This document shows positions 3,240 to 59,215 of a DNA stretch of 64,000 nt, one piece after another. Each line of letters opens with the position of its first letter. Within the stretch, counting starts at the first letter, position 1. This stretch comes from a virus, in the IMG/VR virus record IMGVR_UViG_3300019458_000033, positions 1-64,000 of that record; one strand, written 5' to 3'. The notes below the pieces were generated by a model, which was not told where the DNA came from, ran no database searches, and saw nothing but the letters and a program-made list of their open reading frames with translations. Position numbers and translations under genes: made by a program.

Positions 3240-3247
3240 AGCACAAA

Positions 3248-41120: not shown

Positions 41121-44100
41121 ATGCCCACTGGTGCCGAGCGCGAATTCTACGAATCCCTGAAAAAGACGCGGCTTCTACCATCTGAAGCTCGCGAGATTTG
41201 GGACGCCCGCTCGGATCAGTCCAAACTCCAGCAGGCTCTCACCCGCTACCGGAACTACATCCCCGACGCCCTCCGCGGCGAGATCAACGAGCGCGCCCGC
41301 AACACAGCACTTGAGATTACGGGCTCCTCGCCCGCTGGCCGCGCCGCGCGGCTGATGTCCACCTTCGGTATCGAGGCAAAGCCCGAGCCCGTTCAGCCCG
41401 CCCCCGGCGCGCCGATGACATTCGGCGAGATCGGCCGCTCGGTCGCCGAGGGCCTGCCGATCAAACCCACTATCACCGGCAAGACGCCCGGCGGTGCGCT
41501 GGGCCAGTTCGCCCTGGGGACCGAAGAGCGCCCGACACTACTGGGTGGGGCGCTGCGCTCCAGCCGCGCGATCGAGCCACTGAGCGAAGTTCCCGGCATG
41601 CTGCTTGAGCCGGCGGTCGATGTTACTGCCCTGACGCCAGAGCGGGGCGCGGCGCGCGGAGTTGCGGAATTCGCAACCGGGATGGCATCGCCTGCTGGCC
41701 TTGCGCTTGGCGCTCTGGGCCTGCCAGCCATTGGCGCAACCGCCGGCTCACGGCTGCTGTCGCAGATGGCGGCGCGGCTGGGCTTGGGCGCATCGCTGGC
41801 CTACGAGGCTGGCAAGCGCGTTCCTGGGTTCTTCGAGCGACTCAATGAGATCGTCAAGCCTGGCAGCGATCCTGAACTCGTCAAGATCCAGCAGGAAGAA
41901 ATGACGCAGGCGTTGCTGGAGAGCGCGACAGGCCTCGGCCTGATCCGCTCGGGTCTTGGGCCGCTGCGAAGCGTCGCGCGCGCCGGGGCTGCTCCTAAAG
42001 CCGCCGCTGGCGTAGCTGGCGCGCGCGCAGGGCTGCCGCCTCCACGCCCGCCGGGCATTGAGGCTCCCAGACCCCTAATCGAGCCTCCTGGGCCACGCAC
42101 GGCGACCGGACGCAGGCCGCCTGCCGGTGCGCCGCGCGCCATGCCTGGCCAGCGCCCACCGGCCGCGCCACGCTTCCGGCCCGACCAGCCGGTGTTGCGC
42201 CGCGATCTGCCGCCCATGCCCGGCAAGAGTCCATTCCCGCCGCTGCCCACGGGTGCGCCAGGGATGCCGCCGATGCGCCAGCGGCCCAAGGGCTTCCTGC
42301 CCCGTGGCGCGTTTCAGATGGGGCCCGCAGCGGGCGTGCCGCAGGACCTCGAAGCGACTGGCGGGGCGCCGCCGCGCGCGCTCGACTTCACGCCTTCGGA
42401 CATGGCAAAGCCGGGCGGCTCGCAGCCGCTGTCGCGCGGCCGGCCGGTTTGGATGAAGGCGGGCGAGTCGTCGGTAATGGGTGAGTGGGCTGTCGTGCGC
42501 AACCGGGACCTGGTGACGTCGAACTCGTCGGCGCTGGTGGAGAACCCCGACTATCCGCAGTTTCTCCAGAACCGCGATCGTTCGTCGCGGGCTTCAGAGG
42601 CCTCGATCCGCCAGATTCAGTCGCGGCTCGACCCGGAGCAGTTGGGCGAAAGCTATCTGGCGTCGGATGGCGCGCCTGTTATTGGCGGCGACATGGTGGT
42701 CGAGGCGGGCAACGGCCGCACAATCGCCCTGCGGCGCGAGTACGACTCCGAGACGCCGCGCGCGGCGCGCTACAGGGACTGGCTGCTGAAAAACGCCGAG
42801 CGCTTCGGCGTCGACCCCAAGGCCATCGAGAGCGTCCCCGATCCTCAGCTTGTGCGAATCCGCTCGGATGCGAACCCGATCGACCGGATGGAGTTTGCCA
42901 GGTTGGCGAACGTGTCGCAGGTCGCCCAACTCTCCCCCGCCGAGCTTGCCTCGCAGGACGCCGCACGGATGCCGCCGCGGCTGCTTGAGTTGTTCGACAC
43001 CGAATCCGAGGCCGGGCTGCTGGCCGAATCAAACCGTGACTTTGTGCGCGGCTTCGCCGAGACGCTGGTCGAGCCGTCCGAGCAGCCTGGGTTCATGGCC
43101 GCTGGCGGGGAGCTATCCTCGCAAGGGCTGACGCGCGTGCGCAACGCGATCATCGCCAAAGCCTACGGCGACCCGCAGATTCTGGCGCGAGTTGCGGAAT
43201 CCGCAAACGACGAGCAGAAAAACATCCTGGGCGCGCTGGTTGGCGCGGCCCCGAGAATGGTCTATTCCCAGAAGGGCATCGCCGACGGCGTGTTTCATGA
43301 CCTGCCGATTCACCAGGACGCGGCGCGCGCGGCAAACCTGATGACGGAGCTTGCCGGCCGCGGCTTCACGGTCGAGGATTTCGTCCGCCAGCAATCGCTA
43401 TTTGCGACAGGCCGCGAGTTGACGGCCGAGCAGGAAGCCATCGCGCGCTACTTCGAGGCAAATGCCCGTTCGCCGCGCAAGCTGCAGGCCTATCTCGACA
43501 ACTACAACGAGGCGCTGGTGGCGGCCGGCAACCCGCGGCAGAGCGCCATCTTTGGCGGTCGGCCGCCATCCAGGGTTGACCTGCTCGAAGCCGCGCGGCA
43601 GGTGACGGAGGCCGAGTATGCAGAAAAAGCCAGACAACGCAAAGGGCTCAGGGAAGCCGAAGCCAAACCCGGTCGTCGTGCGCAGGTTGGTCAGAAGGAT
43701 GCAGGCCTTAAAGCGCGCCTCGGCGACCGCCAACTCCAGCCGTTCCAAGGCTCATTCAAAAACCCCGTAGACCTGATGCAGGGCGCGGACATGGTGTACC
43801 GCAAGCCGCGCAAGAATCGGCCGGGCATGTTGTTCGTCAATGAAGGCGGCTCAGCGCTTGTCGAAATCATGTCAGGCCACATGGGCTCGGGCCAGTTGCT
43901 CGGAGCGCAGATTCCTGAGAAAGCCTCCCGCTCGATGCTCAAGAGGATGGACGAGGTTATCGGCAGGGAAACGACACAGCTATTGCCCTGGGTGCGTGAT
44001 AAATTGCAACTGATGCGTCTTGAGATGCAGCGCGCGCTGGACGATAACGGACAGATTCTCGTGGCACGTGCCGATCGCCCGATGGGCGAAGTTAAAGAGA

Positions 44101-47100
44101 CCATCAGGCACGAGCGCGCCCACTACTTCATGGAAGCGCTAGGCCTGAAGGTAGATCCCGTCGCGCTCCTGTCCGACCCACTGTTCTACGATTACGGGCA
44201 CGAGTTAACCAAACTCGGCTACGGCAATGCCAACGCCCGCCAGATTGTCGAAGAAATTGCCAACTATGCGATGGCTGGCCGTGGGAACTGGAAGCAGATC
44301 GGTATGCCGCGCGTCGACGCGCGGCAAGTCGTCGCCTCATGGATCATGCACCTGGCCGAGCGAAACGGCTCCGCTGCTTTTGCCGTCTCAGAAATGGCGA
44401 GCCCCGAACTGTTTGAGACGGTTCGCATAGTCCGCGAACAGGCTTCTGAAGCCTTTGGGATTGATTATGACCCTGCCACCGTTGCCCAACAAATCGAAGC
44501 TCTTGTCGGTGGAGGACGCCCAGCGGGCGGCCTTGAACATGCAGCGCCTGCTGAAGGCGGCGCAGGCGGGGGGCCGCCAGGCGGTACTGGAGGAATTCGA
44601 CCGCCTGTTCCCGGAGACACCGGAGGACCGGGCGGACCCAACTTCGCCCTCCGCCGCCCCCGGCTCGACCCCAAAATCGAGCAACAGCTTGCCGCAACTG
44701 CCAAAAAAGCCAATGCCCTGACGCGCGCTAAAGACTTCCTGGGCGAGCGCTTCATTCACGAGTGGAAGGTCCGCCACCTGCCGGAATTCTCGAACCGCCT
44801 CCGGCTGTTCCGCGGCGCTGGCATCGATTCTGCCCGGCGCGCGGTCACCCAACTGGAAACGGTGCTCGAAGGCTTGCGGCGCGACGAGTATAAGCAGTTC
44901 TTCTCGCCGCTGGCAATCCTTTACGACTTCCGCGCCACGGCACAGCGCGGGCTGGGATTGCCGAACGACATTGACCCGGTGGCGGTCGATCAGGCTATTG
45001 CGGCGCTCGAAAAGGCTGCGCCGAAGCCTGTCTTTGCGGCGCTGGCCCGCCACATGGATCTGGTGCAGCGCGAGGTGGGTGCCGACCTGGTGGCCCGCGG
45101 CAAGATCACGCCCGGGGCGGCCGCCTCGCCTTACTTCCCGCACATGGTGATGGACTATTCGGAGCGGCTGGGCGAGATGGCCTGGATGCCGTCGCGGCTG
45201 CGCACGCCGGGCCGGCGCTACGCCCGCAAGCGTTCCGGCTCGAAGCGGCTCATCAACCCCGACTACATCGATGTCATGTACAAGCACCTGATGCGGGTGC
45301 ACCTCGACAACGCCGTCGATGACTTCATCCAGGGCGTGGCGAACGACTACGACCAGTTGGGCTCGCTCACGCCGCAGGAGCGGCTGAACCTGTTCGGCAA
45401 GACGCGGCAACCGCGACCTGATGAACTCGTTGAGATCCAGAGGCTTGTCACGCGCACCGTTGCCGGCCCGCGTGGGCCTGTCGTGCAGCGATCTCTTGAG
45501 ACGGTGACACTCGTTGGCTGGTCGCCCAACCCCGGCAACCGCTTCGAGAACGTCAACACGATCACCGACGCGCGGCTCGACAAGGCGAAGGCCCAGCAGA
45601 TGACCGCCGACCAGATGGAGCAGGCCGGCATGTTCGGCGAGCGGCTGGCGATGGCGGGACCAACCAAGACCTACCTGCTTGAGCCTGCGATCGCCGAGCG
45701 GCTCAACAAGTTCCGCGAGCCCAAGCAGAACTCGATCCTGATGGACTTGCCCTACGGCACGCCTGAGTGGAAGCGCTGGACGCTCGCTTGGGCAGGGTTG
45801 CCGTTCCAGGTGCACAATTTTGTCGGTGACGCCGCGGCGGCCTATCTGTTCATGCCGAGTTACGTGGGCCTCGTTGTCGGCAATGCCGCCGGCACGGTGA
45901 TCGGTGGCCTGCTCGGTGGACCTGCGGGTGCGATCATTGGCGGATACGGCGGCTCGATCCTCGGCGGTGCGATGGGCATCGAGTTCTTCGAGGCAATCCA
46001 GGTGCTATCGGCCAACCCCCCGCCGCATCTGGCCGGCATCAAGGACATGATGTACGCGCAGCGCGTCGTCGAGACGTCGACGCTGCAGGGCGGCGAAGTC
46101 CTTGGGCAGGTTCCCCGACCGGAGTTGTCGCGCAAGATCGGGCCACTGGTGCCTTTTGAAAACCCCTACATCGAAAAGGTGTTCGGCGGCTGGAAAGGCG
46201 CATGGGCGAAGTGGAATCCGCTGCACCTGTACGAGACGGCCGGCACCTACAGGGAGAGCTTGCTGCGCACGGCAATCTTTCTTCGTGGCATGAAGAAAAT
46301 CCAGGCTGGCCAGTACGCTCAACTCGAAAGGCGCATGGCGAAGATGTTCAAGGTCAGCGGCCTGAAGCCTATCGACGTAGTCGGCAAGGCCAGCCGGCGG
46401 CTGCTGGTCGATTACGGGGAATCAGCCCCAGTCTACGAGCGTGAGGTGCGCGGGCTGGTGCTACCGTTTGTTCATTGGGCAGCGTCGATGACCTACAATG
46501 TCGGCCGCTACGCCTGGAATTTTCCGTTTGAATTGGCGGCAAAGATCGGTATCCCGCTGACGCTGCTCTACCTGTGGAATACGATGGGCGACCGCGCCGA
46601 AAGCGAAGCCAACGCTCCAGACTATCTGCGGTCGATGACGCACTTCAACACCGGCTGGCGCGACGACGAAGGCAAAGAGATCTGGATCGCCTTCGAGAAT
46701 CCCTGGGACATGTTCGCGCGGGTGTTTGGGTTCGACAAGGCGCGGGACTATTTCGAGCAAGTCGAGCGTGGGGAGATTACGCCTCTCGATGCCGGGGCAA
46801 AGTTCGCACGCGACGTGATGATTGGCAAAGCTGGGCCGTTGGCTGTAGCCCACGACATGCTGCACCCGGTTGCGAAAATCTTAGAAGGCTGGGCGTCGGG
46901 AAAGGACCAGTTTTCCGGCCGGCCCATCTGCCCGCCGTCGATCGAGGGCACCGGCGAATGCGCAATGATAAAAGGCATGTGGGGTGTCGGGCAGCTGTTC
47001 TCACCAGTGGGAGCGTTTCTGAGGGCTGAGAACGTTGTCGGAGAAGGTGGCCCGCTGAGGCGCACGCTGCAGCGACCGATCGACTGGCAGCGCGCGCTGG

Positions 47101-47522
47101 GGATCTACAAGGTGGACCCCTACCAAAACGCCGTCCGCCGCAACTACGAGTCGCAGGCTGAGGCTGAGGCTGGCTATAACGAGATGATGTACCGGCTCGA
47201 AACCGCGCTGATCGCCCGCGAGACCATGGGCGACGTCGAGAGCTTCTACAAAGAGGACTTCGACCGGATCGTCAACGAATACCCGTTCGGCGGTAGCCGT
47301 GTGGCCATGGACATCGTCAAGCGGCAGAAGTCGGTCGGGTTCCAGGCGCGGCGCACGCGCGAGATGCTCATCAAAGGCGACCTGACAGAGGCCCAGCGCG
47401 AGCAGTTGAAGCGCCAACTCGAAGCGCTCCAGGACCGCCAGATGATCGAGTCTCGCAAGAATATCCGCGTTGGGGCGCGGCCCGTGCTGCCACCGCTGCC
47501 GGCGCCCGAGCAGGAGCCCTGA
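41121..47522 (+). CDS. giant multi-domain (polyvalent-type) internal/ejected protein, 2133 aa
   Basis: ParB/Srx-like segment (FLQNRDR...VVEAGNGRTIALRRE). HExxH zincin motif HERAH at 44109-44123. Pro-rich linker around 42000-42300. Gly-zipper hydrophobic block VVGNAAGTVIGGLLGGPAGAIIGGYGGSILGGAMG. Confidence 0.7.
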   Translation: MPTGAEREFYESLKKTRLLPSEAREIWDARSDQSKLQQALTRYRNYIPDALRGEINERARNTALEITGSSPAGRAARLMSTFGIEAKPEPVQPAPGAPMTFGEIGRSVAEGLPIKPTITGKTPGGALGQFALGTEERPTLLGGALRSSRAIEPLSEVPGMLLEPAVDVTALTPERGAARGVAEFATGMASPAGLALGALGLPAIGATAGSRLLSQMAARLGLGASLAYEAGKRVPGFFERLNEIVKPGSDPELVKIQQEEMTQALLESATGLGLIRSGLGPLRSVARAGAAPKAAAGVAGARAGLPPPRPPGIEAPRPLIEPPGPRTATGRRPPAGAPRAMPGQRPPAAPRFRPDQPVLRRDLPPMPGKSPFPPLPTGAPGMPPMRQRPKGFLPRGAFQMGPAAGVPQDLEATGGAPPRALDFTPSDMAKPGGSQPLSRGRPVWMKAGESSVMGEWAVVRNRDLVTSNSSALVENPDYPQFLQNRDRSSRASEASIRQIQSRLDPEQLGESYLASDGAPVIGGDMVVEAGNGRTIALRREYDSETPRAARYRDWLLKNAERFGVDPKAIESVPDPQLVRIRSDANPIDRMEFARLANVSQVAQLSPAELASQDAARMPPRLLELFDTESEAGLLAESNRDFVRGFAETLVEPSEQPGFMAAGGELSSQGLTRVRNAIIAKAYGDPQILARVAESANDEQKNILGALVGAAPRMVYSQKGIADGVFHDLPIHQDAARAANLMTELAGRGFTVEDFVRQQSLFATGRELTAEQEAIARYFEANARSPRKLQAYLDNYNEALVAAGNPRQSAIFGGRPPSRVDLLEAARQVTEAEYAEKARQRKGLREAEAKPGRRAQVGQKDAGLKARLGDRQLQPFQGSFKNPVDLMQGADMVYRKPRKNRPGMLFVNEGGSALVEIMSGHMGSGQLLGAQIPEKASRSMLKRMDEVIGRETTQLLPWVRDKLQLMRLEMQRALDDNGQILVARADRPMGEVKETIRHERAHYFMEALGLKVDPVALLSDPLFYDYGHELTKLGYGNANARQIVEEIANYAMAGRGNWKQIGMPRVDARQVVASWIMHLAERNGSAAFAVSEMASPELFETVRIVREQASEAFGIDYDPATVAQQIEALVGGGRPAGGLEHAAPAEGGAGGGPPGGTGGIRPPVPGDTGGPGGPNFALRRPRLDPKIEQQLAATAKKANALTRAKDFLGERFIHEWKVRHLPEFSNRLRLFRGAGIDSARRAVTQLETVLEGLRRDEYKQFFSPLAILYDFRATAQRGLGLPNDIDPVAVDQAIAALEKAAPKPVFAALARHMDLVQREVGADLVARGKITPGAAASPYFPHMVMDYSERLGEMAWMPSRLRTPGRRYARKRSGSKRLINPDYIDVMYKHLMRVHLDNAVDDFIQGVANDYDQLGSLTPQERLNLFGKTRQPRPDELVEIQRLVTRTVAGPRGPVVQRSLETVTLVGWSPNPGNRFENVNTITDARLDKAKAQQMTADQMEQAGMFGERLAMAGPTKTYLLEPAIAERLNKFREPKQNSILMDLPYGTPEWKRWTLAWAGLPFQVHNFVGDAAAAYLFMPSYVGLVVGNAAGTVIGGLLGGPAGAIIGGYGGSILGGAMGIEFFEAIQVLSANPPPHLAGIKDMMYAQRVVETSTLQGGEVLGQVPRPELSRKIGPLVPFENPYIEKVFGGWKGAWAKWNPLHLYETAGTYRESLLRTAIFLRGMKKIQAGQYAQLERRMAKMFKVSGLKPIDVVGKASRRLLVDYGESAPVYEREVRGLVLPFVHWAASMTYNVGRYAWNFPFELAAKIGIPLTLLYLWNTMGDRAESEANAPDYLRSMTHFNTGWRDDEGKEIWIAFENPWDMFARVFGFDKARDYFEQVERGEITPLDAGAKFARDVMIGKAGPLAVAHDMLHPVAKILEGWASGKDQFSGRPICPPSIEGTGECAMIKGMWGVGQLFSPVGAFLRAENVVGEGGPLRRTLQRPIDWQRALGIYKVDPYQNAVRRNYESQAEAEAGYNEMMYRLETALIARETMGDVESFYKEDFDRIVNEYPFGGSRVAMDIVKRQKSVGFQARRTREMLIKGDLTEAQREQLKRQLEALQDRQMIESRKNIRVGARPVLPPLPAPEQEP
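41662..41676. repeat. palindrome family copy, 1 mismatch (TTGCGGAATTCGCAA), intragenic
   Basis: Reads VAEFAT. Confidence 0.7.
43192..43206. repeat. palindrome family copy, perfect, intragenic
   Basis: Reads VAESAN. Confidence 0.9.
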
Positions 47523-51018: not shown

Positions 51019-51546
51019 TTACATGTCAAGGTCGTACTTGCGTGGCTTTGGCTCTGCCTGGTTGTAGGCCGGGGCCTTGGGAGACGGGGGTAGGCCTTGC
51101 AAACCAGCCCAACGACCAGGCGAACCCTTGCTGGCTATCTTGCGAAGCCTGGCTATCTCGGCAGCGTACTGGTCTGGCCGGTCCTTGCGCCATTGGATAT
51201 CGGCATCAAGACATTGACGGAGTTGTTCGATTGGCATCGAGGCAAGGTCGGCGATATCGATCGCGCCATATGCGGAGTACTCAAGCAGAATTGCACGCTG
51301 GGCATCGTTAAGTAGGCGCATTGTATCGGCTGGCGTGCGGCGCTCGGATTCGCCCTTGACGGTGACCGAGAACAGTGTGAATTCTTCGGCGCACGGATCT
51401 GGCTCGAAGCGTAGCGTGGCTTTGGTTTCCATGGTGATTTGGTGGTAGCCGCGATACGGCGCCGGTGGAATCTTGACTGCTTCTTGGCCGGCGACTACCC
51501 AAGCGCCACTCGGAAAAACTCCGTCAATCAGGTAGTTAACAGGCAT
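51019..51546 (-). CDS. hypothetical early protein with conserved C-terminal tail
   Basis: ATG lies 1 nt from the palindrome and there is no SD. C-terminus PPSPKAPAYNQAEPKPRKYDLDM. Confidence 0.55.
   Translation of the reverse strand: MPVNYLIDGVFPSGAWVVAGQEAVKIPPAPYRGYHQITMETKATLRFEPDPCAEEFTLFSVTVKGESERRTPADTMRLLNDAQRAILLEYSAYGAIDIADLASMPIEQLRQCLDADIQWRKDRPDQYAAEIARLRKIASKGSPGRWAGLQGLPPSPKAPAYNQAEPKPRKYDLDM
51029..51076 (-). repeat. 48-nt repeat encoding the shared C-terminal tail, copy 1
   Basis: 44 of 48 nt are identical to 52361-52408. Confidence 0.85.
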
Positions 51547-51547
51547 T

Positions 51548-51562
51548 TTGCGGATTCCGCAA
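51548..51562. repeat. palindrome family copy, perfect
   Basis: On the - strand the junction reads TGA-AAG-palindrome-A-ATG. Confidence 0.9.
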
Positions 51563-51565
51563 CTT

Positions 51566-52351
51566 TCAGCGCTGCGCCCCAAAGGCTGCATCAGAGACAC
51601 CGTTGACCCATTGCCTGGTCGCCTCATCGCCTTCCTGGCGAATTCCGGCCGCCACGTGCGTTGCTACGTAGCCCAGGATCGCATCGATGCGGTTGTCGGG
51701 CCCCTCCCCAGCATAAGCCACTAGGTCGGCTGACTCAATGAAGTCGGCAAACGCCTTGGCCGCCTCGGCGCTCGCTCCGGCGAGTACCTTCAGGATGCGC
51801 TCGATCTGGCCCGCGGCGGCTTTGTCAGGGACCCACACACGCACCGTGGCCCCTTCCTCGGCGGAGACTTCGCGGCGGAAGTCGCGCGGGCGCAGCGTCA
51901 CCGCCTGCTCGACGATTCCAGGGTCGAGCTTTTTGCCGGAGGCTTTCTGCGCCTTCTCGACCTTAACGATCGTTCGGGCGTTGGTCAGCGGCAGCGCGGC
52001 AAGCCTTTCGGGGTCAAGCGATGCGATCGCCTCCGACTCAGCCATCTCGATCGCCTCGTAGGCGGTGCGCGTCGCCACAAACGCCAGCGCCGGCATGTCG
52101 TCCATGAACGCGCCCCAACCGTCGTAACCCCACTCCAAGTGCAGTTTGCGCTGCTTGGTTTCGGCCAGCACATGCCCCAGCGCCTTGCGGGCTGGCGTGC
52201 CGGCGTTCTCGACCGCCTGTAGAAAGCGTCCTGCTTCGCGCAGGATACCCTTGACGGCGTCGGGGGCGGCGCGGTGGAGCTTTGCCTGCCAGTCTGGCAG
52301 TACCAGCGCTGCGGCGTCAGGAACGAGCTTGATGGTGGTCTGCACGGTCAT
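51566..52351 (-). CDS. hypothetical early protein
   Basis: ORF in track; ATGA-type overlap with the upstream gene. Confidence 0.6.
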   Translation of the reverse strand: MTVQTTIKLVPDAAALVLPDWQAKLHRAAPDAVKGILREAGRFLQAVENAGTPARKALGHVLAETKQRKLHLEWGYDGWGAFMDDMPALAFVATRTAYEAIEMAESEAIASLDPERLAALPLTNARTIVKVEKAQKASGKKLDPGIVEQAVTLRPRDFRREVSAEEGATVRVWVPDKAAAGQIERILKVLAGASAEAAKAFADFIESADLVAYAGEGPDNRIDAILGYVATHVAAGIRQEGDEATRQWVNGVSDAAFGAQR

Positions 52352-52887
52352 TCTCCTGAAAGGTCGTACTTACGTGGCTTGGGCTCTGCCGGGTTGTAGG
52401 CTGGGGCCCTGGGCGGCGGGGGTTGCTCTGGTGGTGGCGGCGGTGGATCATCGACGACGACATCACCCCAGCCGTCAGGCGCCGTGAAAGCAAGGCGACC
52501 CTGCCCTCCGAGCCACCTTAGAATTTTATCTTGCTCAGCCTTTCGGGCCTGCTCTGCCGCCTCATTACGTTCGTTCCGTTCGCGCACCGCCGCGAGGTCG
52601 GCTTGGAGCTTGGCGATGAACTCGGCGTAGCGCAGAACGGCGGTGCTGTCCGGGTCTGTCTGGTAAAGGCGATCCATAGTCCGCTGTAGCGCGGCGATCT
52701 GGATGTAAAGCGACTCCTCACTAGGCAGGATGGCAACGCTACGCGAGTCGCCAACAAACCGCTGCAACTCAGCCGCGGACAAACTCCCGCCGGCCACTAC
52801 GCGCCCGCGAAGGCGCCTGCGAAGGGAGTCGACCTCCCTGTCGCGGTTGAACCCCTTGGCGATGTCGATGTCAAATTGGTCAGGCAT
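52348..52887 (-). CDS. hypothetical early protein with conserved C-terminal tail
   Basis: Start MPDQFDIDIAKGF overlaps the upstream stop (TGATG). C-terminus PPPPRAPAYNPAEPKPRKYDLSGE. Confidence 0.55.
   Translation of the reverse strand: MPDQFDIDIAKGFNRDREVDSLRRRLRGRVVAGGSLSAAELQRFVGDSRSVAILPSEESLYIQIAALQRTMDRLYQTDPDSTAVLRYAEFIAKLQADLAAVRERNERNEAAEQARKAEQDKILRWLGGQGRLAFTAPDGWGDVVVDDPPPPPPEQPPPPRAPAYNPAEPKPRKYDLSGE
52361..52408 (-). repeat. 48-nt repeat encoding the shared C-terminal tail, copy 2
   Basis: See 51029-51076. Confidence 0.85.
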
Positions 52888-53306
52888 CAAGCCACCTCCC
52901 GCTGTTTGCGGTGCGAGATCAGCCGGCCGATGTGGCACGTGCATAGGCGCGCCTGGGTCAACCCCGGCCGATTGGGGACCGGCTCCTGCCTCCAGCCGGT
53001 GTTGCTGCACTCGGGGCAGTTCTGCTTGTCGGCCAGCGTGCGCAGCTTATCAGCCAGTGACAGCGTCCACAGGTTCGCCTTCGACATCGCCTCGACGTGG
53101 CCCGGCGTGGGACGCTTATGGGAGGGGTCGAGCAGGAAGGCGTCGATCGCCTCGTCGATGTGCTCCTCGCCCACCCACTTCTCAAACGCCTCGACCAGCG
53201 CATCCCACGCCGCAGGCTCCATGAACGGGCCATCGAGGCAGGACAGTCGCGTCACCTTGTTGCGGAACTCGTCTGACGCGCGCTTGGTTCGACGTTTACT
53301 TGGCAT
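52887..53306 (-). CDS. zinc-finger-like hypothetical protein
   Basis: NCPECSNTGW...RLCTCHIG. Basic N-terminus. Confidence 0.5.
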   Translation of the reverse strand: MPSKRRTKRASDEFRNKVTRLSCLDGPFMEPAAWDALVEAFEKWVGEEHIDEAIDAFLLDPSHKRPTPGHVEAMSKANLWTLSLADKLRTLADKQNCPECSNTGWRQEPVPNRPGLTQARLCTCHIGRLISHRKQREVA

Positions 53307-54330
53307 GTTTGTACTCGTTCTCGAACGTGGCGGCTTCGCGTTTATTGCAGCCCTTGATGGCTTCAAATAAGATCCCCATCACCTGAGATCCATCGAGGCC
53401 ATCATAGCCGTTGGTGCGGTCGTAGACCGGGCCGCCATAAACTTCATCCTCAAAGTAGTTTGGGAATGCCATCCTGAACCCGTCCACCTCCTGCCATTTC
53501 CAATCTGGTACGTCAGCGCCAAGTTTTGTTTCGATGTCCCTTTCTTCCAACCATTTGACCATATTGGAACAGGCTGGGAATACGTTTGCGCCGCGCTCTC
53601 GGCCGCTCCGGCCGATCTTGCGTGGCAACTGCTTAGGGCCGCCGCCGCCGTTGCGCTGTTCCGACGACACAAACCGGACTTTCAGTAGGCGCTCTCCAAG
53701 TGGCAGGCCTGCCGGCTCGGCACGGTACTCTGTCATGGCACCGGCCAGCGCCTCCCGGTACGAGCACATCTGCTCAAACCCCTCCAGGCGTGCTACCTGG
53801 TCACGCTGGCGAATCTTTACGAGTACAGCCTGGCCGGGGAGCCTGGCTCCGATCTCCTTGCAGGCGTCACGAATCCCATTCTTGATCGACCCAGAACAGG
53901 GAAGACTTAGGGCTGGTAGTTCTTCCTTCTTGTCTTCCAAGTCTTCTTGTTTAAGATATATAGTGGGGTCCGCCTGATACTCGGGCGGGGGCGGCCCGGA
54001 TTGGCTGGCCGCAGGGGGCGTGTTACCAGGCTCCCTAACGATCTCGTAGAGGCGACCACTGGGGTCGTCTTGAACTCTCAGAATTCCGATGTCGACCAAC
54101 CTAGCTGTCGCCCTAGTGAGCGAGTCTCGGCTGTTTTCACAGAGGCTGCGCAACTCGTCACGGCCGAACTGAACAGTTGCCTTGCCTTCACCAATAGTCC
54201 ATCGGCAGAGCACAATCAAGAGCTTTAATTCACACCCTGAGAGGGTTGGTAAAACTTCATCCACCAACTGGTGGGGAAGCATGGTAAAATGGCTTGCAGG
54301 GTAGCGATACTTTCCCATAAGCGATTCCAT
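53296..54330 (-). CDS. replication initiator-like protein (winged-helix N-terminus)
   Basis: FTMLPHQLVDEVLPTLSGCELKLLIVLCRWTIG resembles the phage O/DnaD-type HTH_36 N-terminal domain. Confidence 0.55.
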   Translation of the reverse strand: MESLMGKYRYPASHFTMLPHQLVDEVLPTLSGCELKLLIVLCRWTIGEGKATVQFGRDELRSLCENSRDSLTRATARLVDIGILRVQDDPSGRLYEIVREPGNTPPAASQSGPPPPEYQADPTIYLKQEDLEDKKEELPALSLPCSGSIKNGIRDACKEIGARLPGQAVLVKIRQRDQVARLEGFEQMCSYREALAGAMTEYRAEPAGLPLGERLLKVRFVSSEQRNGGGGPKQLPRKIGRSGRERGANVFPACSNMVKWLEERDIETKLGADVPDWKWQEVDGFRMAFPNYFEDEVYGGPVYDRTNGYDGLDGSQVMGILFEAIKGCNKREAATFENEYKHAK

Positions 54331-54523: not shown

Positions 54524-56398
54524 CTACACTGTCAACTCCGTTGCTGTCGCCTCGCCAGTCCCATTGCGCTCGACCCACCAAGTTCGCCATGCGGCCCCAG
54601 CCGGCGGCGCCGTCTTCTCGTCGGAGGTGTAGACTTGGATGATCTGGCAGCCCGACCCCATCAGGGCTTTAGCCAGCAACCTCTCGCGGGTCTTCGACAG
54701 CGGCGCGGCATGCTCGATCACCGCCACGCCGATGCCGGTTGTCTTCGCTGCGGCAACCCGGAACGCAGCTTCGAGGATCTGCCGGCGCTCGCCGTCCGAC
54801 CAGCGCTCGGCCTCCCAGGTCTCGGTGCCAAAGCCCGAGTCAAGCTCGTAGCGCACCGGGCCCAACCCGAACGGCCTCAGGAACTCGTTCATAGCCTTGA
54901 CCACCGCGCCGATCCTAGACTCGACAATACGGGTGCGCTCCGATTCCAGTTGCTTGACGAGTTCTTTCACCTCGCGCACGCCGGCCGTGGTTGCCTCCAG
55001 GTCCGCCATGTAGGCCGTCGCCTTCTGGTCGGTGCGTTCGTAGTCGGCAATCTCCTCCAGGGCTGTTTCGGCCTTGGTGAGGATCATCTGCACGGTCGAG
55101 AGTTTCTGTTTGGCGGCGTCGAGCTCCGCAGTAACCGCGGCGAGGCCGGCCTCGTGCTGCGAGGCGGTGGCTGCCGCGCGGTGGGATTCAAGCCTCAGCG
55201 TGGACTCTCGCAGGGTTTCCCTAGCAGCGCGCAGCCCCTCAGCAAGCGCCGCCGCCGCGGCTTGGGCGTCCTGCTCGGCCTGGATCGCCTTCTTCTGCTC
55301 CTTGTCGAGCTTGGTGTAGGCTCCCTCCAGCCGCTTGAGCTTGGCCTGCTGCTCGGCGTTCTCCTTGGCGGCCGGCGAGTCGGCAAACGCGGCGAGCACG
55401 GGACAGGCCTTGGCTGGACACTCGACCGGCTCGGGGGTGATCAAGCCCTTCACGCGAAGCTGCTCAGCGAGGTTTTTCTGCATCGCCTCGCTAGCTTTCT
55501 GCCGCTCGGCTGTGGCCCCCTTCGACTTCTGCTCGGCGTCGGCCCACAACGGCTCATTGCGCGCGATTGTTGCGGTGAGTTTCTCGATCGCCTCGGCAAG
55601 ATTGGCGGCAGCGGCCTCCGATAGCGCCTCCCCACCTGTTTTGCCGGCGGCGATTGCGGCTTCTAGATCGGACTTACGGCGCTCGATCGCCCCCAACTCG
55701 CGGTTGATCTTGTCGCGCTGCTGCTGGGCCTGCTGGTGGCCTGAGCGCAACTGCTCGGCTGTCTTACCCTCGCGAGGCCATTTAGGCCGCTCGACGGCGG
55801 AATCCTGCAGCCGCTTGAGGTCTTTGTTGAGCGAGCGCAGGGTGACGTCTTTGAGGTCCCGAACGGTGCGGTCGATCTGCTCAAGACTCGCCAAGCTCTC
55901 GATCGAGTATTTGCGCATCAACTCGGTAATCTTGACCGGCTCAGGCTTCAGCACCCGCGAGATCAGCACCTTCTGCTGCTGTGGGTCGCGGTCCATAATC
56001 GGCAGCGGGTCGAGCAGCGCCGTCAGCAGTTGCTCGTTGCCGCCCATGCGCTCGTAAAGCAGCGCCTGGCAGGTATCTACGTTCGCGCTGTCAACTCCAG
56101 CAACCTGCAAGCGGTGGCCGCCCATGCCGCGCCCGCTGCCACGCTGCCGCGCCCACGTGGCGATGTCGGAGACGACCTTGACGCCGACCGAGTCGGCGCC
56201 CCACGACACCAGCCGCTCCCATTTGGCGCCGCTCAGGTGCGTCTCGCGGCAAATTCCGGTGGCGGCCCAAGCCAGCGCCATCAGGATCGAGGATTTTCCA
56301 GCGCCGTTGTCTCCACGAAGGATCGTGTAGTCGCCGAACTCGATGGGCGCGTTAGGAAACCCTCGAAAGTTTTTCAGGTGGATTTGGCTGATTTTCAT
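54524..56398 (-). CDS. SMC/SbcC/RecF-like AAA ATPase
   Basis: MKISQIHLKNFRGF...GDNGAGKSS (Walker A), a long coiled-coil middle, and C-terminal SDGERRQ signature with VAVIEHA. Confidence 0.75.
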   Translation of the reverse strand: MKISQIHLKNFRGFPNAPIEFGDYTILRGDNGAGKSSILMALAWAATGICRETHLSGAKWERLVSWGADSVGVKVVSDIATWARQRGSGRGMGGHRLQVAGVDSANVDTCQALLYERMGGNEQLLTALLDPLPIMDRDPQQQKVLISRVLKPEPVKITELMRKYSIESLASLEQIDRTVRDLKDVTLRSLNKDLKRLQDSAVERPKWPREGKTAEQLRSGHQQAQQQRDKINRELGAIERRKSDLEAAIAAGKTGGEALSEAAAANLAEAIEKLTATIARNEPLWADAEQKSKGATAERQKASEAMQKNLAEQLRVKGLITPEPVECPAKACPVLAAFADSPAAKENAEQQAKLKRLEGAYTKLDKEQKKAIQAEQDAQAAAAALAEGLRAARETLRESTLRLESHRAAATASQHEAGLAAVTAELDAAKQKLSTVQMILTKAETALEEIADYERTDQKATAYMADLEATTAGVREVKELVKQLESERTRIVESRIGAVVKAMNEFLRPFGLGPVRYELDSGFGTETWEAERWSDGERRQILEAAFRVAAAKTTGIGVAVIEHAAPLSKTRERLLAKALMGSGCQIIQVYTSDEKTAPPAGAAWRTWWVERNGTGEATATELTV

Positions 56399-56943
56399 TT
56401 CTTCCCTTTCATGGCCCTGACGCGCTTCGCAACAAACTGTAAGCGCAGGCCGTATTCATGGATTACTCCCGGCCGGTAGCCGTTTTCTTTGCCAATTGCT
56501 TTATATCTTGACAGCCACTCACCAATTGGCAGAGAGTGGCATCCGACGCGGACCTCATCGCATCCCGCCACCGCGATGATGTCATGGCCAAGTCCAGAAA
56601 TGCGCAGGATTCCTTTGGCCCCGCTCAGGTCGGCCCCGCTCAGCTTGGCCCCGCGCAGGTCGGCCCCGCTCAGGTCGGCCCCGCGCAGGTCGGCCCCGAT
56701 CAACTCGGCCTCGCGCAGGCCAGCCCCGCGCAGGTTGGCCCCGCGCAGGCCAGCCCCGCGAAGGTCGGCCCCGATCAACTCGGCCCGGCTCAGGTTGGCC
56801 TCGCTCAGGTCGGCCCCGCGAAGGTTGGCCCCGATCAGGTCGGCCTCGCGCAAGCTGGCCAGGCGCAGGTTGGCCCCGGTGAGCGACGAGGCATCGACGA
56901 TGCGCAGCACGGCGCCGGATAGGGATTTGATCTCGATTGGCAT
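56395..56943 (-). CDS. pentapeptide-repeat protein
   Basis: AAGGAG SD. About 20 consecutive A(D/N)L-type pentapeptides (ANLRGADLSEANLSRAELIGADLRGAGLRGANL...). Confidence 0.8.
   Translation of the reverse strand: MPIEIKSLSGAVLRIVDASSLTGANLRLASLREADLIGANLRGADLSEANLSRAELIGADLRGAGLRGANLRGAGLREAELIGADLRGADLSGADLRGAKLSGADLSGAKGILRISGLGHDIIAVAGCDEVRVGCHSLPIGEWLSRYKAIGKENGYRPGVIHEYGLRLQFVAKRVRAMKGKK
56617..56885 (-). repeat. 15-nt periodic coding repeats (pentapeptide repeats)
   Basis: GGCCCCGC(T/G)CAGGTC-type units in tandem. Confidence 0.85.
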
Positions 56944-56962
56944 GGGTTCTCCTTTTTTGTGG

Positions 56963-58105
56963 TTAGTCAAACATCTTGTCCAGATCGTCGAGCGAAGCCT
57001 CGCCCTTAGCCGGTGGCAGCTCCGCACTGAAGGGATCGTCACCCGACGGCTCGGCTTGCTTCTCCCCTTCCGGCTCATCGGGATCGCCAATCGACTCGAC
57101 AAAGTCGTCAACCTCGGGCTTTACTTGTTTAGCGAGCGCCTTGGCGGCCTCAGCCGTTGTCTTTGCCGCAGCGGGCTTTGAGCGGGGCTTTTTGGCTTCG
57201 AGTTTGCCGCTGTAGGCCTCGATCAGCTTGAGCACGCTGGCGTTGACGTAGGCTTTGGGATCGTCCTGTTCGCTAGACGCCATGCAGATATCGAGCATCA
57301 CGTTGATCGCTGTGGCGATTGGCACGCCAGCCTTGTGCGCCAACTCTTTGACCTTCTGCTGGTCGGCAATGGAAATCAGCGCCTCGTCGATGTCGTCGCT
57401 GACGGCAGCCTGCTGCTGCATGGCTTCGAGCTTTTCCTCGGTGGTTGCGGGCGGCAAGGCTTCAGGCTGATGGTCGATGTCGATGGCCTCCTCGGAGGTG
57501 TACATGCCGCCGATAATGTCAGGAGCGATCTCGCGCGCCGCCTCCGAGCAGGCCCGCTGCCGCAGCATGTTCTGAAGCTCCTGGCCCGAGCGCCGCCACT
57601 TCTCGGCAAGGTTGGAGCGCTCCTTAGGACCGTCGCGGTCTTGCTTGTTGGGCAGCCAGACCGGATAAGCCTCGGCGCGCGCCTTGGTCCACGTCGCGGC
57701 GTAGCTTTGAGGCTTGGAGCCGTTGACGCCCGGCCGGGTGACATTGCAAACAACCTTCTCGGCCTCGTTGACCGGGTATTCCACCGTGCAGCCAGCCTGG
57801 ATCAGCAGCGCCCGCATAGCCTTTGCCTCCAGGCCCAGGTTGCCGCCAGGAGTGGGATAGATGACCTGTAGCGCCATACCGAACGGCATCCCAAGCTCGC
57901 GCGCGCGCAGCATCATGAACATGACCGACATCGGCTTGCCGCGGGCGTGGACGGGAATCTGCGGCGCGTTGCAGATCAGCGCCGCCTTGATGAGGTTGGC
58001 GCGGTCGGGGTCATCGGCCGGCAGCATCTCGGCGTATTTGAGAATTTGGTCCATGCCGGCCGTGGTCGGCAGGCCCGCGCTAGGTGTCTGAGGATAGTTT
58101 CCCAT
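56963..58105 (-). CDS. recT: RecT/Bet-family single-strand annealing protein (putative)
   Basis: MFMMLRARELGMPFGMALQVIYPT.GGNLGLEAKAMRALLIQAG and LQNMLRQRACSEAAREIAP fit the RecT pattern. Acidic C-terminal tail. CAGGAG SD before the ATG at 58105. Confidence 0.6.
   Translation of the reverse strand: MGNYPQTPSAGLPTTAGMDQILKYAEMLPADDPDRANLIKAALICNAPQIPVHARGKPMSVMFMMLRARELGMPFGMALQVIYPTPGGNLGLEAKAMRALLIQAGCTVEYPVNEAEKVVCNVTRPGVNGSKPQSYAATWTKARAEAYPVWLPNKQDRDGPKERSNLAEKWRRSGQELQNMLRQRACSEAAREIAPDIIGGMYTSEEAIDIDHQPEALPPATTEEKLEAMQQQAAVSDDIDEALISIADQQKVKELAHKAGVPIATAINVMLDICMASSEQDDPKAYVNASVLKLIEAYSGKLEAKKPRSKPAAAKTTAEAAKALAKQVKPEVDDFVESIGDPDEPEGEKQAEPSGDDPFSAELPPAKGEASLDDLDKMFD
58031..58068 (-). 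repeat. 38-nt perfect direct repeat, copy 1 (RecT codons about 13-25)
   Basis: GGCGTATTTGAGAATTTGGTCCATGCCGGCCGTGGTCG is identical to 58302-58339. Confidence 0.9.
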
Positions 58106-58376
58106 TGTCAATACTCCTGATAATGCCTGTCAGTTTGTCTCGGAATTCTGTCAATTGCTGGCGGCTGCTGAACCGCAGCAGTGTGCGCACCGAGTTTGCG
58201 CTACCGTGGATGAGTAGATGCACCTCGGGGGAGCCGGCGCGCGGTCGCCACAGCCGCCACGACTGAACCTTGTGCATGTAGAGCTCGCGCTGGATGGACG
58301 GGGCGTATTTGAGAATTTGGTCCATGCCGGCCGTGGTCGTCGGCAGGCTGCCGAATGACTTCAGGATCCACTTCAT
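58080..58376 (-). CDS. hypothetical protein sharing an N-terminal segment with RecT
   Basis: AGAGG SD. N-terminus MKWILKSFGSLPTTTAGMDQILKYA... It overlaps the RecT start by 26 nt. Confidence 0.45.
   Translation of the reverse strand: MKWILKSFGSLPTTTAGMDQILKYAPSIQRELYMHKVQSWRLWRPRAGSPEVHLLIHGSANSVRTLLRFSSRQQLTEFRDKLTGIIRSIDNGKLSSDT
58302..58339 (-). repeat. 38-nt perfect direct repeat, copy 2
   Basis: See 58031-58068. Confidence 0.9.
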
Positions 58377-58414
58377 CGGATTGCCTCTTTTGAACATACA
58401 TTCTCATTAAAAAG

Positions 58415-59215
58415 CTAGATGAGGAAAACCTCTGTTGGTTTATCCTGCTCGCTTACTCGCATCGCCAGGGGCAGCCCGCGCTTGTCATAGGCTTTGCGCA
58501 GGACCCGACGCAGCAGTTCAGGATCGTTGTTCTCCCTGGACACATGCACAAACACTGCCACGCGCGCCTCGGGGCCCATCCCGCAAACCACCTCGGCGGC
58601 TTGGTCGTTCGACAGGTGCGTGTGGTAGGTGCGCTCGTTGATATGCCGCGGGCGTTTCTCGTTGTCGGCGCACATGTAGGGGTCGTGGTTGGCTTCGATC
58701 ACGTAGCCTTGGGCGCCCGCGCCGAGCTTGAGCATCTGCGGGGTTACCCGGCCCGTCTCGACAAACATCGCGAGCTTTGAGGCGCGCTCCTTGACGAAGT
58801 AGGTCACCGCGCCAGCCGCGTTGTGATGCGTCTCGACGGCAATGAATTTGACGTGCGGCAACTTGGGCATAAAGAACACCTTGCCGGGCTCGACCACCTC
58901 GCACAGCAAGGGGTGCGCGGCAAGATAGTCGACGCTCTCGATGGTGGCGGCGGTGGCGTAGACGCGGTCAAAACCTTCGCGCTCAACCAGTGTTTTGATC
59001 GACTGGATATGGTCGCCGTGCGAATGCGTCACAAGCAGCGTGTGGATCTGCGCCAGCGGCACGCCCCGCTCGGCGCATCGCAGGCGGATCTGCTTGCAAG
59101 ACAGGCCGGCGTCGATGAGCACACCCCAGTCCTCTCCCCACGCCGCAATGGCGTTGCCCGCCGAGCCAGTACCGAGGCAGCAGAAGTTCAAGGGGTGCGC
59201 CCCTCCTTGACGCAA
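58415..59215 (-). CDS. metallo-beta-lactamase fold hydrolase, YycJ/WalJ-like
   Basis: LGTGSAGNA...LIDAG...LLVTHSHGDH...ANHD...THLSNDQAA...HVSRENNDP. Confidence 0.75.
   Translation of the reverse strand: MRQGGAHPLNFCCLGTGSAGNAIAAWGEDWGVLIDAGLSCKQIRLRCAERGVPLAQIHTLLVTHSHGDHIQSIKTLVEREGFDRVYATAATIESVDYLAAHPLLCEVVEPGKVFFMPKLPHVKFIAVETHHNAAGAVTYFVKERASKLAMFVETGRVTPQMLKLGAGAQGYVIEANHDPYMCADNEKRPRHINERTYHTHLSNDQAAEVVCGMGPEARVAVFVHVSRENNDPELLRRVLRKAYDKRGLPLAMRVSEQDKPTEVFLI

Follow-up and report, generated by a model that had tools for sequence, protein, structure and literature searches.

The window analysed here, a 64,000-nucleotide stretch of the IMG/VR virus record IMGVR_UViG_3300019458_000033, is assigned to a phage genome because its plus strand encodes portal, major head and tail proteins. 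By portal protein, its nearest isolates are phages of Tunturiibacter (Acidobacteriota), at 28% identity. The minus strand carries a gene cluster in the order MBL-fold hydrolase, RecT-like protein, pentapeptide-repeat protein, ATPase and RepO-like protein, and no terminator-like site was found on the minus strand inside this cluster. The features are as follows.

58415..59215, minus strand: metallo-beta-lactamase (MBL)-fold hydrolase at the head of the cluster (Lactamase_B_2, E 2.7e-13; phrog_392, E 2.5e-32)
56963..58105, minus strand: RecT-like single-strand annealing protein, immediately upstream of the pentapeptide gene in the operon
56949..56953, minus strand: Shine-Dalgarno AGGAG, 5 nt upstream of the pentapeptide-gene ATG, read from the sequence
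56395..56943, minus strand: pentapeptide-repeat protein gene, 182 codons plus TGA (ORF and translation, PF00805, AF2 model with pLDDT 87)
56893..56943, minus strand: N-terminal cap, aa 1-17 (MPIEIKSLSGAVLRIVD), a beta-hairpin with strands at residues 2-6 and 12-17 (DSSP on the AF2 model)
56608..56892, minus strand: pentapeptide solenoid, net charge 0 (Tandem Repeats Finder, unit table, per-face charges, Foldseek)
56398..56607, minus strand: non-repeat C-terminal domain, aa 113-182, four strands and two helices (alignments A1 and A2; AF2)
54524..56398, minus strand: SbcC/Rad50/SMC-like ATPase, 624 aa (AAA_15, AAA_23, SMC_N; phrog_77, E 1.1e-20)
53296..54330, minus strand: O-like replication initiator gene, following the ATPase gene (matched weakly by Phage_rep_O and phrog_678)

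The pentapeptide gene encodes 182 aa on the minus strand, from an ATG at 56943-56941 to a TGA at 56397-56395. The stop codon of the RecT-like gene (56963-56965) lies 17 nt ahead of its AGGAG/ATG, and the ATG of the ATPase (56398-56396) shares an ATGA overlap with its TGA, which confirms the translational packing between the two neighbours described in an earlier, sequence-only reading of this DNA. That reading also named the upstream neighbour as RecT. The name is supported by PHROG phrog_4171 (E 8.8e-15) and by tblastn matches to Gordonia phage RecT-like proteins, although the Pfam RecT profile scores 22.1 bits, under its 24-bit cutoff. The MBL-fold hydrolase has a weak Anti-Pycsar_Apyc1 match (18 bits against a 50-bit cutoff) and may act as a nuclease in partnership with the recombination module or, alternatively, as a cyclic-nucleotide phosphodiesterase.

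The protein matches the Pfam Pentapeptide family PF00805 with E = 3.8e-31 (106.7 bits; cutoff 20.2). It had been described as consisting almost entirely of repeats; the near-consensus repeats are real, but they span only aa 18-112, about 52% of the protein, as 19 contiguous units making up ~4.75 coils. Membership of the pentapeptide-repeat family calls for 8 or more contiguous A(D/N)LXX units, and the window array has 19. The 15-nt periodicity reported earlier at the DNA level is recovered by Tandem Repeats Finder (56617-56878, period 15, 17.5 copies, 75% matches, 0% indels), which gives an additional 75-nt higher-order period in the gene, and agrees with base autocorrelation (0.74-0.78 at lags 15, 30, 45, 60 and 75 against ~0.26 at other multiples of 3). 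Codon usage accounts for this periodicity, since the genome has 62% GC and the protein repeat is near-consensus, and a DNA-level function for it was dropped. The AF2 model has one-residue strands every 5 residues and is matched by Foldseek to pentapeptide-repeat crystal structures (E 6.5e-9 to 1e-5), in support of the proposed fold, a predicted right-handed quadrilateral beta-helix of the pentapeptide-repeat type. The strongest of these matches are to pentapeptide proteins that are either consensus or synthetic designs or of cyanobacterial origin, rather than to the Qnr/MfpA group.

What had been noted as a short globular C-terminus is indeed a non-repeat part, but it is a conserved domain of 70 aa and the family-defining part of the protein. 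Its hallmark is R-[IV]-G-C-x3-[PT]-[LI]-x-E-W ... G-x3-G-Y-[TS]-x2-E-I-x-E-Y, and when modelled alone by AF2 it reaches a pLDDT of 90.6. We define here the GC-EW family as proteins that combine a solenoid with a C-terminal domain of ~70 aa matching the A1 profile. The window protein scores 92.6 bits against this profile (E 1.1e-21 library-wide) and its tail keeps the invariant A1 columns G134, W143, Y156 and Y164; Cys135 is not essential, being Arg in a relative at the same locus (L109). Comparison of the tail model with the PDB by Foldseek gave no fold match (best E 0.37), the tail HMM found no match among PDB sequences (best E 0.39), and the tail alone found nothing credible in Pfam at E <= 10. 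Against PHROGs, it matches only weakly, to the unknown-function families phrog_32789 and phrog_5353. Beyond the repeats, the window protein has no Pfam, NCBIfam or PADLOC assignment, and it carries no enzymatic signature.

An HMM of the C-terminal domain retrieves 1,848 cluster representatives (678 at E <= 1e-10), all of them short proteins (60-317 aa) that carry the domain C-terminally. Among the best 144 of the 1,848, 83 have a pentapeptide solenoid, ~41 have another N-terminal part (mostly hexapeptide-type) and 20 are stand-alone domains. Family members share the N-cap motif M.IEIK..G.VL. The window protein matches ~240 GenBank phage records, while a tblastn search of 50,697 GenBank phages for window-type tails returned nothing beyond Vibrio phage 1.081.O and a pair of unannotated faecal contigs; tails of this type are therefore almost absent from cultured phages. 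Scans of IMG/VR with the window tail, the window ATPase and the window RecT returned no relatives. The top-scoring matches to the full-length query are phage proteins of ~280 aa with a DUF5758 (PF19062) tail, which have a similar N-cap (IKNRWTG.VLF) and a near-consensus pentapeptide solenoid. Their C-terminal domain is different and larger (..C.GIHFF..), however, and the window-type tail HMM does not match it. No publication on DUF5758 was found in the literature.

The GC-EW tail is also remotely homologous, judging from sequence profiles, to the tails of Vibrio phage 24 gp60 and ST64T orf232 over its first ~55 residues. Aligned by hhalign to a 6-sequence gp60/orf232 tail alignment, A1 gives a probability of 95.2% (E 2.8e-8) over 42 columns in the first half of the domain, whereas hhalign with a single sequence gives only 47%. 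The relationship is further suggested by hmmsearch (14 bits, p about 1e-6) and by tblastn with the whole window protein, in which matches to gp60/orf232-type phages extend past the repeats to aa 143-145. The gp60 group (SBVc24_0060, orf232, epsilon34 gp42, Edwardsiella PVN06, E. coli P64441 and Providencia PSTCR6) has the same plan of cap, solenoid and tail, shares the motif R-x-G-C-x3-T-x2-E-W within the homologous stretch, and likewise sits in early operons near recombinase, methylase and anti-restriction genes. It differs in the second half of the tail, where G-x3-G-Y-T-x2-E-I-x-E-Y and a long helix of the window type cannot be aligned with M-D-G-x3-L-x-F-Y-P-R-L-L-D-x-I-D-F-Y ... R-P-[ED]-W of the gp60 type, and in the N-cap, which is unlike that of the window protein in most members.

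This link provides the family with a precedent in anti-defence. Deletion of gp60 is reported to render phage 24 highly sensitive to the RexAB-like system Sucellos, and Sucellos escapers carry gp60 substitutions (bioRxiv 10.1101/2024.07.02.601686, a preprint on one defence system). A placement of the escaper mutations in the tail was dropped: N110, Y112 and N115 fit the repeat spacing N-L-Y-G-A-N, which corresponds to N40-N45 in the deposited gp60 sequence, and the escaper residues more likely lie on the solenoid surface. Anti-Sucellos activity is reported for gp60 only. The sequence-only reading had proposed a nuclease or defence inhibitor, and the second half of that proposal gains a precedent from this remote homologue of the same architecture.

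Repeat number is hypervariable within the family: caps and tails that are nearly identical enclose anywhere from 2 to ~45 units. In L109/L110 (two independent and concordant assemblies), which carry the nearest relative at the same locus, the solenoid has ~5 units against 19 in the window, with tails 78% identical and neighbouring ATPases 61% identical. Instability of the 15-bp repeat extends to the gp60 group, where phages L and ST64T are >99.9% identical and their orf232 differs by one 15-bp repeat (PMC8022706). Tandem paralogues occur in two loci (L016 and L017) and in a Leptospira phage-plasmid, and Vibrio phage 1.184.A has a frameshifted copy. The free drift in repeat number, the absence of the gene from most phages and this frameshifted copy would all fit a transient early 'junk' gene without important function, or an array acting at the DNA level. 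We regard either as extremely improbable, given that frame, N-cap and tail are conserved across diverse nucleotide compositions and ~1,800 clusters, that the tail is better conserved than the adjacent ATPase, and that the homologue gp60 has a deletion phenotype (preprint, bioRxiv 10.1101/2024.07.02.601686). Fast repeat turnover of this kind is typical of conflict genes.

We next consider the neighbourhoods of relatives, in small surveys (~12 pentapeptide-branch and 55 hexapeptide-branch loci) based on naive ORF calling. In the window and in four other loci (L001, L002, L023 and L024), a same-strand RecT or Rad52 gene is found no more than 2 kb away. These four, together with phage L and Vibrio phage 1.184.A, place a relative upstream of RecT, Rad52 or Erf; the distantly related orf232 of phage L is ~1 kb upstream of erf, in the order N, ral (anti-restriction), pentapeptide gene, 17, cIII, kil, erf, abc1, abc2, and the relative in Vibrio phage 1.184.A adjoins Erf. 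A 591-aa 'coil' protein following that Erf was considered as an SbcC-like ATPase and rejected (BLASTP against the window ATPase, E 3.1). The N-terminus of this coil protein looks YqaJ-like. Elsewhere the setting changes: gp60 of phage 24 is flanked by methylases and primase, and the freshwater branch neighbours Dam, C5 and N4 methylases, Lar, SNF2 helicases and YqaJ. In the 55 IMG/VR loci, a non-redundant set, the ORFs of 180-420 aa that lie no further than 3 kb away include RecT twice, ERF twice and YqaJ three times, and none of the three appears among the top 25 Pfam families, the extent of that summary, for ORFs at least 4 kb away. Recurrence of pentapeptide genes beside recT, raised earlier as a point to survey, therefore holds for the window and a handful of relatives, but a family-wide annealase association was rejected, with an annealase within 3 kb in ~4/55 loci. 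No publication connecting pentapeptide proteins with RecT turned up in a literature search.

The gene order of the window also raises the possibility that the protein is an accessory subunit or regulator of the phage recombination machine. It would bind the ATPase, the MBL hydrolase or RecT and could serve, for example, as a rigid adaptor or to gate nuclease activity. RecT and the ATPase flank the gene in a cluster that shows no internal terminator, the ATGA overlap with the ATPase gene is kept in L109/L110, the only known relative of the window ATPase, and the pentapeptide tail there is better conserved than the ATPase itself. We nevertheless consider such a role unlikely. A jackhmmer search over 113 loci found an SbcC-like ATPase beside family members only in the window and L109/L110, and most relatives adjoin unrelated genes (methylases, helicases, ral, 17). 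Moreover, repeat number differs four-fold between the two ATPase-linked orthologues, which would be odd for a fixed structural subunit.

The sequence-only reading proposed, as a plausible inference, a Gam-like analogue with a fold that mimics B-DNA; in the form considered here, it would inhibit RecBCD/AddAB, or restriction enzymes, and so protect DNA ends while RecT works. The predicted pentapeptide-repeat fold is that of the accepted DNA mimics MfpA and Qnr (PMC8145042; PMC7980463), and the RecT-like neighbour, with RecT, Rad52 or Erf near relatives, recalls lambda gam-bet-exo. The surface argues otherwise. Counted from the sequence, the solenoid has no net charge, with its four faces at 0, 0, +1 and -1, while the full-length protein comes out basic (+7, pI 9.73; 20 D+E against 27 K+R); this sequence-based test gives no acidic, DNA-like surface. 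Net charge in the family is not consistently acidic either (median -2, range -18 to +15). Length is likewise unconserved: the solenoid of the same-locus orthologue makes only about one coil, the 2-5 units of some relatives are too few to imitate a DNA duplex, and many relatives swap the pentapeptide solenoid for hexapeptide repeats. Distant relatives in P22-like phages occur alongside the genuine anti-RecBCD genes abc1 and abc2, which phage L carries together with its related pentapeptide gene, and annealase genes are only weakly associated with the wider family, as noted above. McbG and QnrB do not inhibit BREX (PMC7261183), so mimicry alone is insufficient. Taken together, this evidence leaves the Gam-like proposal unsupported and makes DNA mimicry improbable, although the window protein may inhibit a nuclease by a non-mimic mechanism. 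Lambda Gam, T7 gp5.9, P22 Abc2, Ocr and ArdA are likewise small early phage proteins, some encoded beside recombinase genes (lambda gam-bet-exo, P22-type erf-abc1-abc2), and act by stoichiometric binding of host enzymes, as we propose for the window protein. They have no sequence or fold relationship to it, however, and the mimics among Gam, Ocr, ArdA and gp5.9 are strongly acidic where the window protein is basic or neutral.

The same fold invites comparison with Qnr, MfpA, AlbG and McbG, which are also right-handed quadrilateral beta-helices of A(D/N)LXX repeats and of similar size (183-218 aa against 182 aa). A role in modulating the DNA gyrase or topoisomerase IV of the host in the manner of Qnr/MfpA, with host supercoiling adjusted to suit phage replication, would fit placement in a DNA-metabolism operon; QnrB1, MfpA and AlbG are among the Foldseek matches, and phages are known to encode the small gyrase inhibitors Gip and Igy (PMC10886550). 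Yet the NCBIfam models score far below cutoff (penta_rpt_Qnr 28.2/240, MfpA 48.3/360 and QnrA 32.5/450 bits), the best structural matches fall outside this group, and the uninterrupted window array of ~4.75 coils lacks both the Qnr loop insertions and an acidic DNA-like surface. The window protein further differs in being phage-encoded and of variable length, and in carrying a distinct alpha/beta tail of 70 aa where those proteins have a short dimerising helix. A solenoid of variable length is incompatible with the fixed geometry of a T-segment mimic, and we judge gyrase modulation very unlikely.

These observations lead us to favour, tentatively and at somewhat less than an even chance, a role in which the window protein blunts a host anti-phage or DNA-surveillance system by stoichiometric protein binding, neither as a B-DNA mimic nor as a Gam analogue. 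On this reading the gene encodes an early-expressed phage accessory protein, whose architecture the analysis shows to be a short N-cap, a beta-solenoid that varies in length and type across the family, and the conserved domain of ~70 aa. The C-terminal domain may be the constant module, for docking or oligomerisation, and the solenoid a rigid, rapidly evolving interaction surface whose repeat number would expand and contract through its own 15-nt DNA repeats. Both the anti-defence activity and the choice of host target are what we infer from this pattern, and co-location with RecT and the ATPase would then reflect phage protection while recombination intermediates form. The gene is placed in an early operon, a context that does not discriminate between readings because early operons also hold phage replication and recombination accessory factors. 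Since the coupling of the pentapeptide gene to the ATPase is kept in the one available relative, a link to the ATPase is at least as much indicated.

A more specific and rather unlikely version of the anti-defence reading is that family proteins serve as decoys or plugs for RexAB-type abortive-infection sensors, with an 'accordion' solenoid whose changes would represent arms-race retuning of the binding surface. It would accommodate a novel 70-aa domain fused to interchangeable pentapeptide and hexapeptide solenoids whose length changes on very short timescales, and placement beside recombinase genes would follow if the sensors detect the recombinase or its intermediates.

Hundreds of phage genomes have annotated pentapeptide-repeat genes without an established function, and our analysis indicates that the informative part of such proteins is the unannotated tail rather than the repeats. 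This tail unites ~1,800 protein clusters in a single family, proteins with hexapeptide solenoids among them, and remotely ties that family to the sole phage pentapeptide protein with an anti-defence phenotype. The results also caution against the reflex labels given to phage pentapeptide proteins, such as Qnr-like, DNA mimic or quinolone-resistance gene. If the family is indeed anti-defence, it would offer a marker for counter-defence loci that is both widespread and easy to recognise, and would illustrate how a protein inhibitor can evolve through 'accordion' changes in repeat number.

The window encodes a pentapeptide-repeat protein of 182 aa on its minus strand (ATG at 56943-56941, TGA at 56397-56395), with an AGGAG Shine-Dalgarno sequence 5 nt 5' of the start. 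The sequence-only reading had described a gene with a 15-nt periodicity packed between RecT-like and ATPase genes, and this description is borne out. Tandem Repeats Finder places an array at 56617-56878 (period 15, 17.5 copies, 75% matches, no indels) with a higher-order period of 75 nt, base autocorrelation at multiples of 15 nt is 0.74-0.78 against about 0.26 elsewhere, and the protein matches Pfam PF00805 (Pentapeptide; E 3.8e-31, 106.7 bits, cutoff 20.2). The stop codon of the RecT-like gene (56963-56965) lies 17 nt before the pentapeptide gene, whose TGA overlaps the ATPase ATG (56398) as ATGA. The minus-strand order is metallo-beta-lactamase (MBL)-fold hydrolase, RecT-like, pentapeptide, ATPase and RepO-like, and no terminator-like site was found on this strand within the hydrolase-to-RepO-like cluster. 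Portal, major head and tail genes identify the window as a phage genome, with Tunturiibacter (Acidobacteriota) phages as the nearest isolates by portal protein (28% identity).

Features of the window
41121-47522, plus strand: very large ORF of 2,133 aa among virion genes, strongly matching unknown-function PHROGs (phrog_5143, E 1.9e-81)
51019-51627, minus strand: early protein ending in ..APAYNQAEPKPRKYDLDM
52348-53010, minus strand: early protein ending in ..APAYNPAEPKPRKYDLSGE
54524-56398, minus strand: SbcC/Rad50/SMC-like ATPase gene, 624 aa, also matching PADLOC LmuB (Lamassu SMC-like) models (E 7.9e-15)
58031-58068 and 58302-58339: direct repeat of 38 nt, copies identical and 271 nt apart
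58415-59215, minus strand: MBL-fold hydrolase, first gene of the RecT cluster, strong match to phrog_392

The almost identical C-terminal peptides of the two early proteins recall shared docking tails like the one on SSB. The 38-nt repeat duplicates codons of the RecT N-terminus (..PTTAGMDQILKYA..) inside a small upstream ORF (58080-58397); recombination may have left it as a scar, or RecT and the small ORF may share an N-terminal peptide. The hydrolase matches Anti-Pycsar Apyc1 (18 bits, cutoff 50) and PADLOC LmuA weakly; it could work with RecT as a nuclease, or degrade cyclic nucleotides as an anti-defence enzyme.

All structures considered here are predicted, and charges are calculated from sequence. 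The AlphaFold2 model of the window protein (pLDDT 87) has three parts.

Parts of the window protein in the AlphaFold2 model
aa 1-17: beta-hairpin cap
aa 18-112: quadrilateral beta-helix
aa 113-182: compact domain of four strands and two helices (the tail)

The protein had been read as almost entirely repeats with a short globular C-terminus; repeats are indeed present, but their 19 units make up about half of the protein, and what follows is a conserved 70-aa domain. Foldseek searches of the PDB with the model return pentapeptide-repeat structures only, led by synthetic consensus solenoids and cyanobacterial Np275/276 (45-55% identity), with QnrB1, MfpA and AlbG ranking lower; the repeats are therefore of the near-consensus ADLRG/ANLSG type. 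The tail modelled by itself (pLDDT 90.6) has no significant fold match in the PDB (best E 0.37), no match among PDB sequences and no Pfam family, and its PHROGs matches are weak and to unknown-function groups only.

Full-length searches are dominated by pentapeptide proteins, many with another tail, DUF5758. In the subset with the window-type tail, G134, C135, W143, Y156 and Y164 are invariant, save that the cysteine is Arg in the relative sharing the window's ATPase type. A tail profile recovers 1,848 cluster representatives among 1.84 billion (678 at E <= 1e-10), all of them short (60-317 aa) and with the domain always C-terminal. Pentapeptide repeats precede the tail in 83 of the 144 top representatives, 20 are essentially stand-alone tails, and about 41 carry another N-terminal part, mostly hexapeptide-type repeats (e.g. 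GDARVYGNAQVS or IGDGSTIGDD). On these profile matches, the family is defined by its tail, not by its repeats. Since hexapeptide repeats form another kind of beta-solenoid, it is the tail that is conserved as a module, and the solenoid can be exchanged.

The solenoid also varies in length. Members with near-identical caps and tails carry anything from 2-3 units (106 aa), through intermediates of 116, 121, 126, 131 and 136 aa, to about 45 units (301 aa) in the longest of the series (locus L004). Phages L and ST64T, >99.9% identical, differ at two sites only, one of them an indel of a 15-bp repeat in orf232, their pentapeptide gene (PMC8022706), which shows that the repeats do change in number and that assembly error is not the cause. 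We further note tandem paralogues, with two pentapeptide genes side by side in L016 (627-1880) and L017 (147-1577), and four hexapeptide-repeat genes in a row after a Gp157 gene in the Leptospira phage-plasmid p2 (L112, 4073-6240), the last of which holds the tail match. In a freshwater contig (L008, 9776-12430), a pentapeptide ORF runs without a stop into an SNF2 helicase / N6-N4 DNA methylase ORF (884 aa in total); the two may be truly fused, or a stop codon may have been lost.

The window ATPase has a single homologue at E <= 1e-10 among 5.8 billion proteins. Directly 5' of its one close relative (61% identity) lies a pentapeptide gene whose tail is 78% identical to the window's, with the ATGA overlap kept and about 5 units against 19, in two independent sequencing runs. 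This translational coupling, conserved in two related phages, would fit a protein that partners or regulates the SbcC-like ATPase/RecT machine of the phage itself, but such ATPases are absent beside every other family member examined, and we regard this role as doubtful.

Recurrence near recT is seen in some branches, but not throughout the family.

Annealase genes near pentapeptide-branch loci
L001: RecT 1.3-1.5 kb downstream
L002: Gp157 and RecT 1.7 kb downstream
L021: no annealase within 8 kb
L022: RecT 6 kb off, opposite strand
L023: Rad52-like gene adjoining, methylases 2 kb off
L024: RecT 0.3 kb downstream

In the freshwater branch the gene is placed 3.5-6 kb downstream of YqaJ and directly adjoins Dam, C5 or N4 methylases, Lar, PAPS reductase, SNF2 helicases and primases. 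An IMG/VR survey of 55 non-redundant loci, mostly of the hexapeptide branch (ORFs of 180-420 aa, naive ORF calling), finds YqaJ 3, RecT 2, ERF 2, Gp157 2, PD-(D/E)XK 2 and DNA methylases 5 times within 3 kb; at 4 kb or more RecA occurs once, and RecT/ERF are absent among the 25 commonest Pfam families, to which the context summaries refer. These samples are small and come from metagenomic contigs. Together, the loci and counts indicate that a link to annealases does exist but is confined to some branches. What family loci share is a position in an early DNA-metabolism and accessory operon; the plasmid matches come from phage-plasmids, in which a cI/Cro-like switch lies just upstream of the gene.

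A functional lead comes from a preprint on Vibrio phage 24, in which all escapers of Sucellos, a RexAB-like system, are reported to carry substitutions in 24_60, a pentapeptide-repeat protein (gp60) whose deletion reportedly leaves the phage highly Sucellos-sensitive and for which the authors postulate an anti-defence role (bioRxiv 10.1101/2024.07.02.601686). The deposited gp60 (140 aa) shares the architecture of the window protein, and its tail starts with the window-family hallmark ...VRAGCQSYTIEEW.... The window-family HMM scores gp60 at 14 bits (p ~1e-6, single test), and hhalign of six gp60-type tails (phage 24, phage L, Edwardsiella PVN06, E. coli P64441, Providencia PSTCR6 and Vibrio 1.184.A) against A1, the alignment of window-type tails, gives a probability of 95.2% (E 2.8e-8, 42 columns). 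Similarly, tblastn alignments of the whole window protein extend beyond the repeats to aa 143-145 in gp60-type phages. The second tail halves are not alignable, so the homology is remote and covers part of the domain only. The reported escaper positions N110, Y112 and N115 have a spacing that exactly fits N-L-Y-G-A-N in a repeat (N40-N45 of deposited gp60), and the authors sequenced the repeat region anew (bioRxiv 10.1101/2024.07.02.601686). This suggests that the surface of the solenoid matters for gp60 function. The neighbours of gene 24_60 are two methylases with a TetR-like gene on one side and the primase on the other. In Vibrio phage 1.184.A (L118, MG592550.1), an unannotated pentapeptide gene at about 2780-3240, with a MIEIK cap and gp60-type tail and followed by Erf and exonuclease genes, is frameshifted inside the repeats, reflecting either a sequencing or assembly error or a pseudogene.

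The sequence-only reading had proposed a B-DNA mimic analogous to Gam. The predicted beta-helix agrees with this proposal, but the charges do not. MfpA is held to imitate B-DNA in size, shape and electrostatics (PMC8145042), whereas the window solenoid is neutral (14 acidic and 14 basic residues, four faces of net 0, 0, +1 and -1), the tail carries +7 and the whole protein has a pI of 9.73. Net charge over the 144 representatives has a median of -2 (range -18 to +15). A solenoid that can shrink to a single coil, or be swapped for a left-handed-type hexapeptide helix, also makes mimicry of a defined duplex stretch unlikely, and mimicry by pentapeptide proteins was not sufficient to block BREX (PMC7261183). 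In the phage L pL operon (N, ral (anti-restriction), orf232, 17, cIII, kil, orf66, erf, abc1, abc2), orf232 has host-interference genes for neighbours and the annealase gene about 1 kb downstream; it coexists with the established anti-RecBCD genes abc1 and abc2, and so is not the Gam analogue there. A Gam-like or anti-restriction mimic is thus unlikely. The window protein falls far under every cutoff of the NCBIfam Qnr and MfpA models, and we think it very unlikely to be a gyrase modulator; that it lacks an important function is the least credible reading.

We tentatively favor, at somewhat under even chances, an early protein that works by binding, either against defence systems or to interfere with the host, in which the conserved tail would serve as a constant module and the fast-evolving solenoid as a variable surface.
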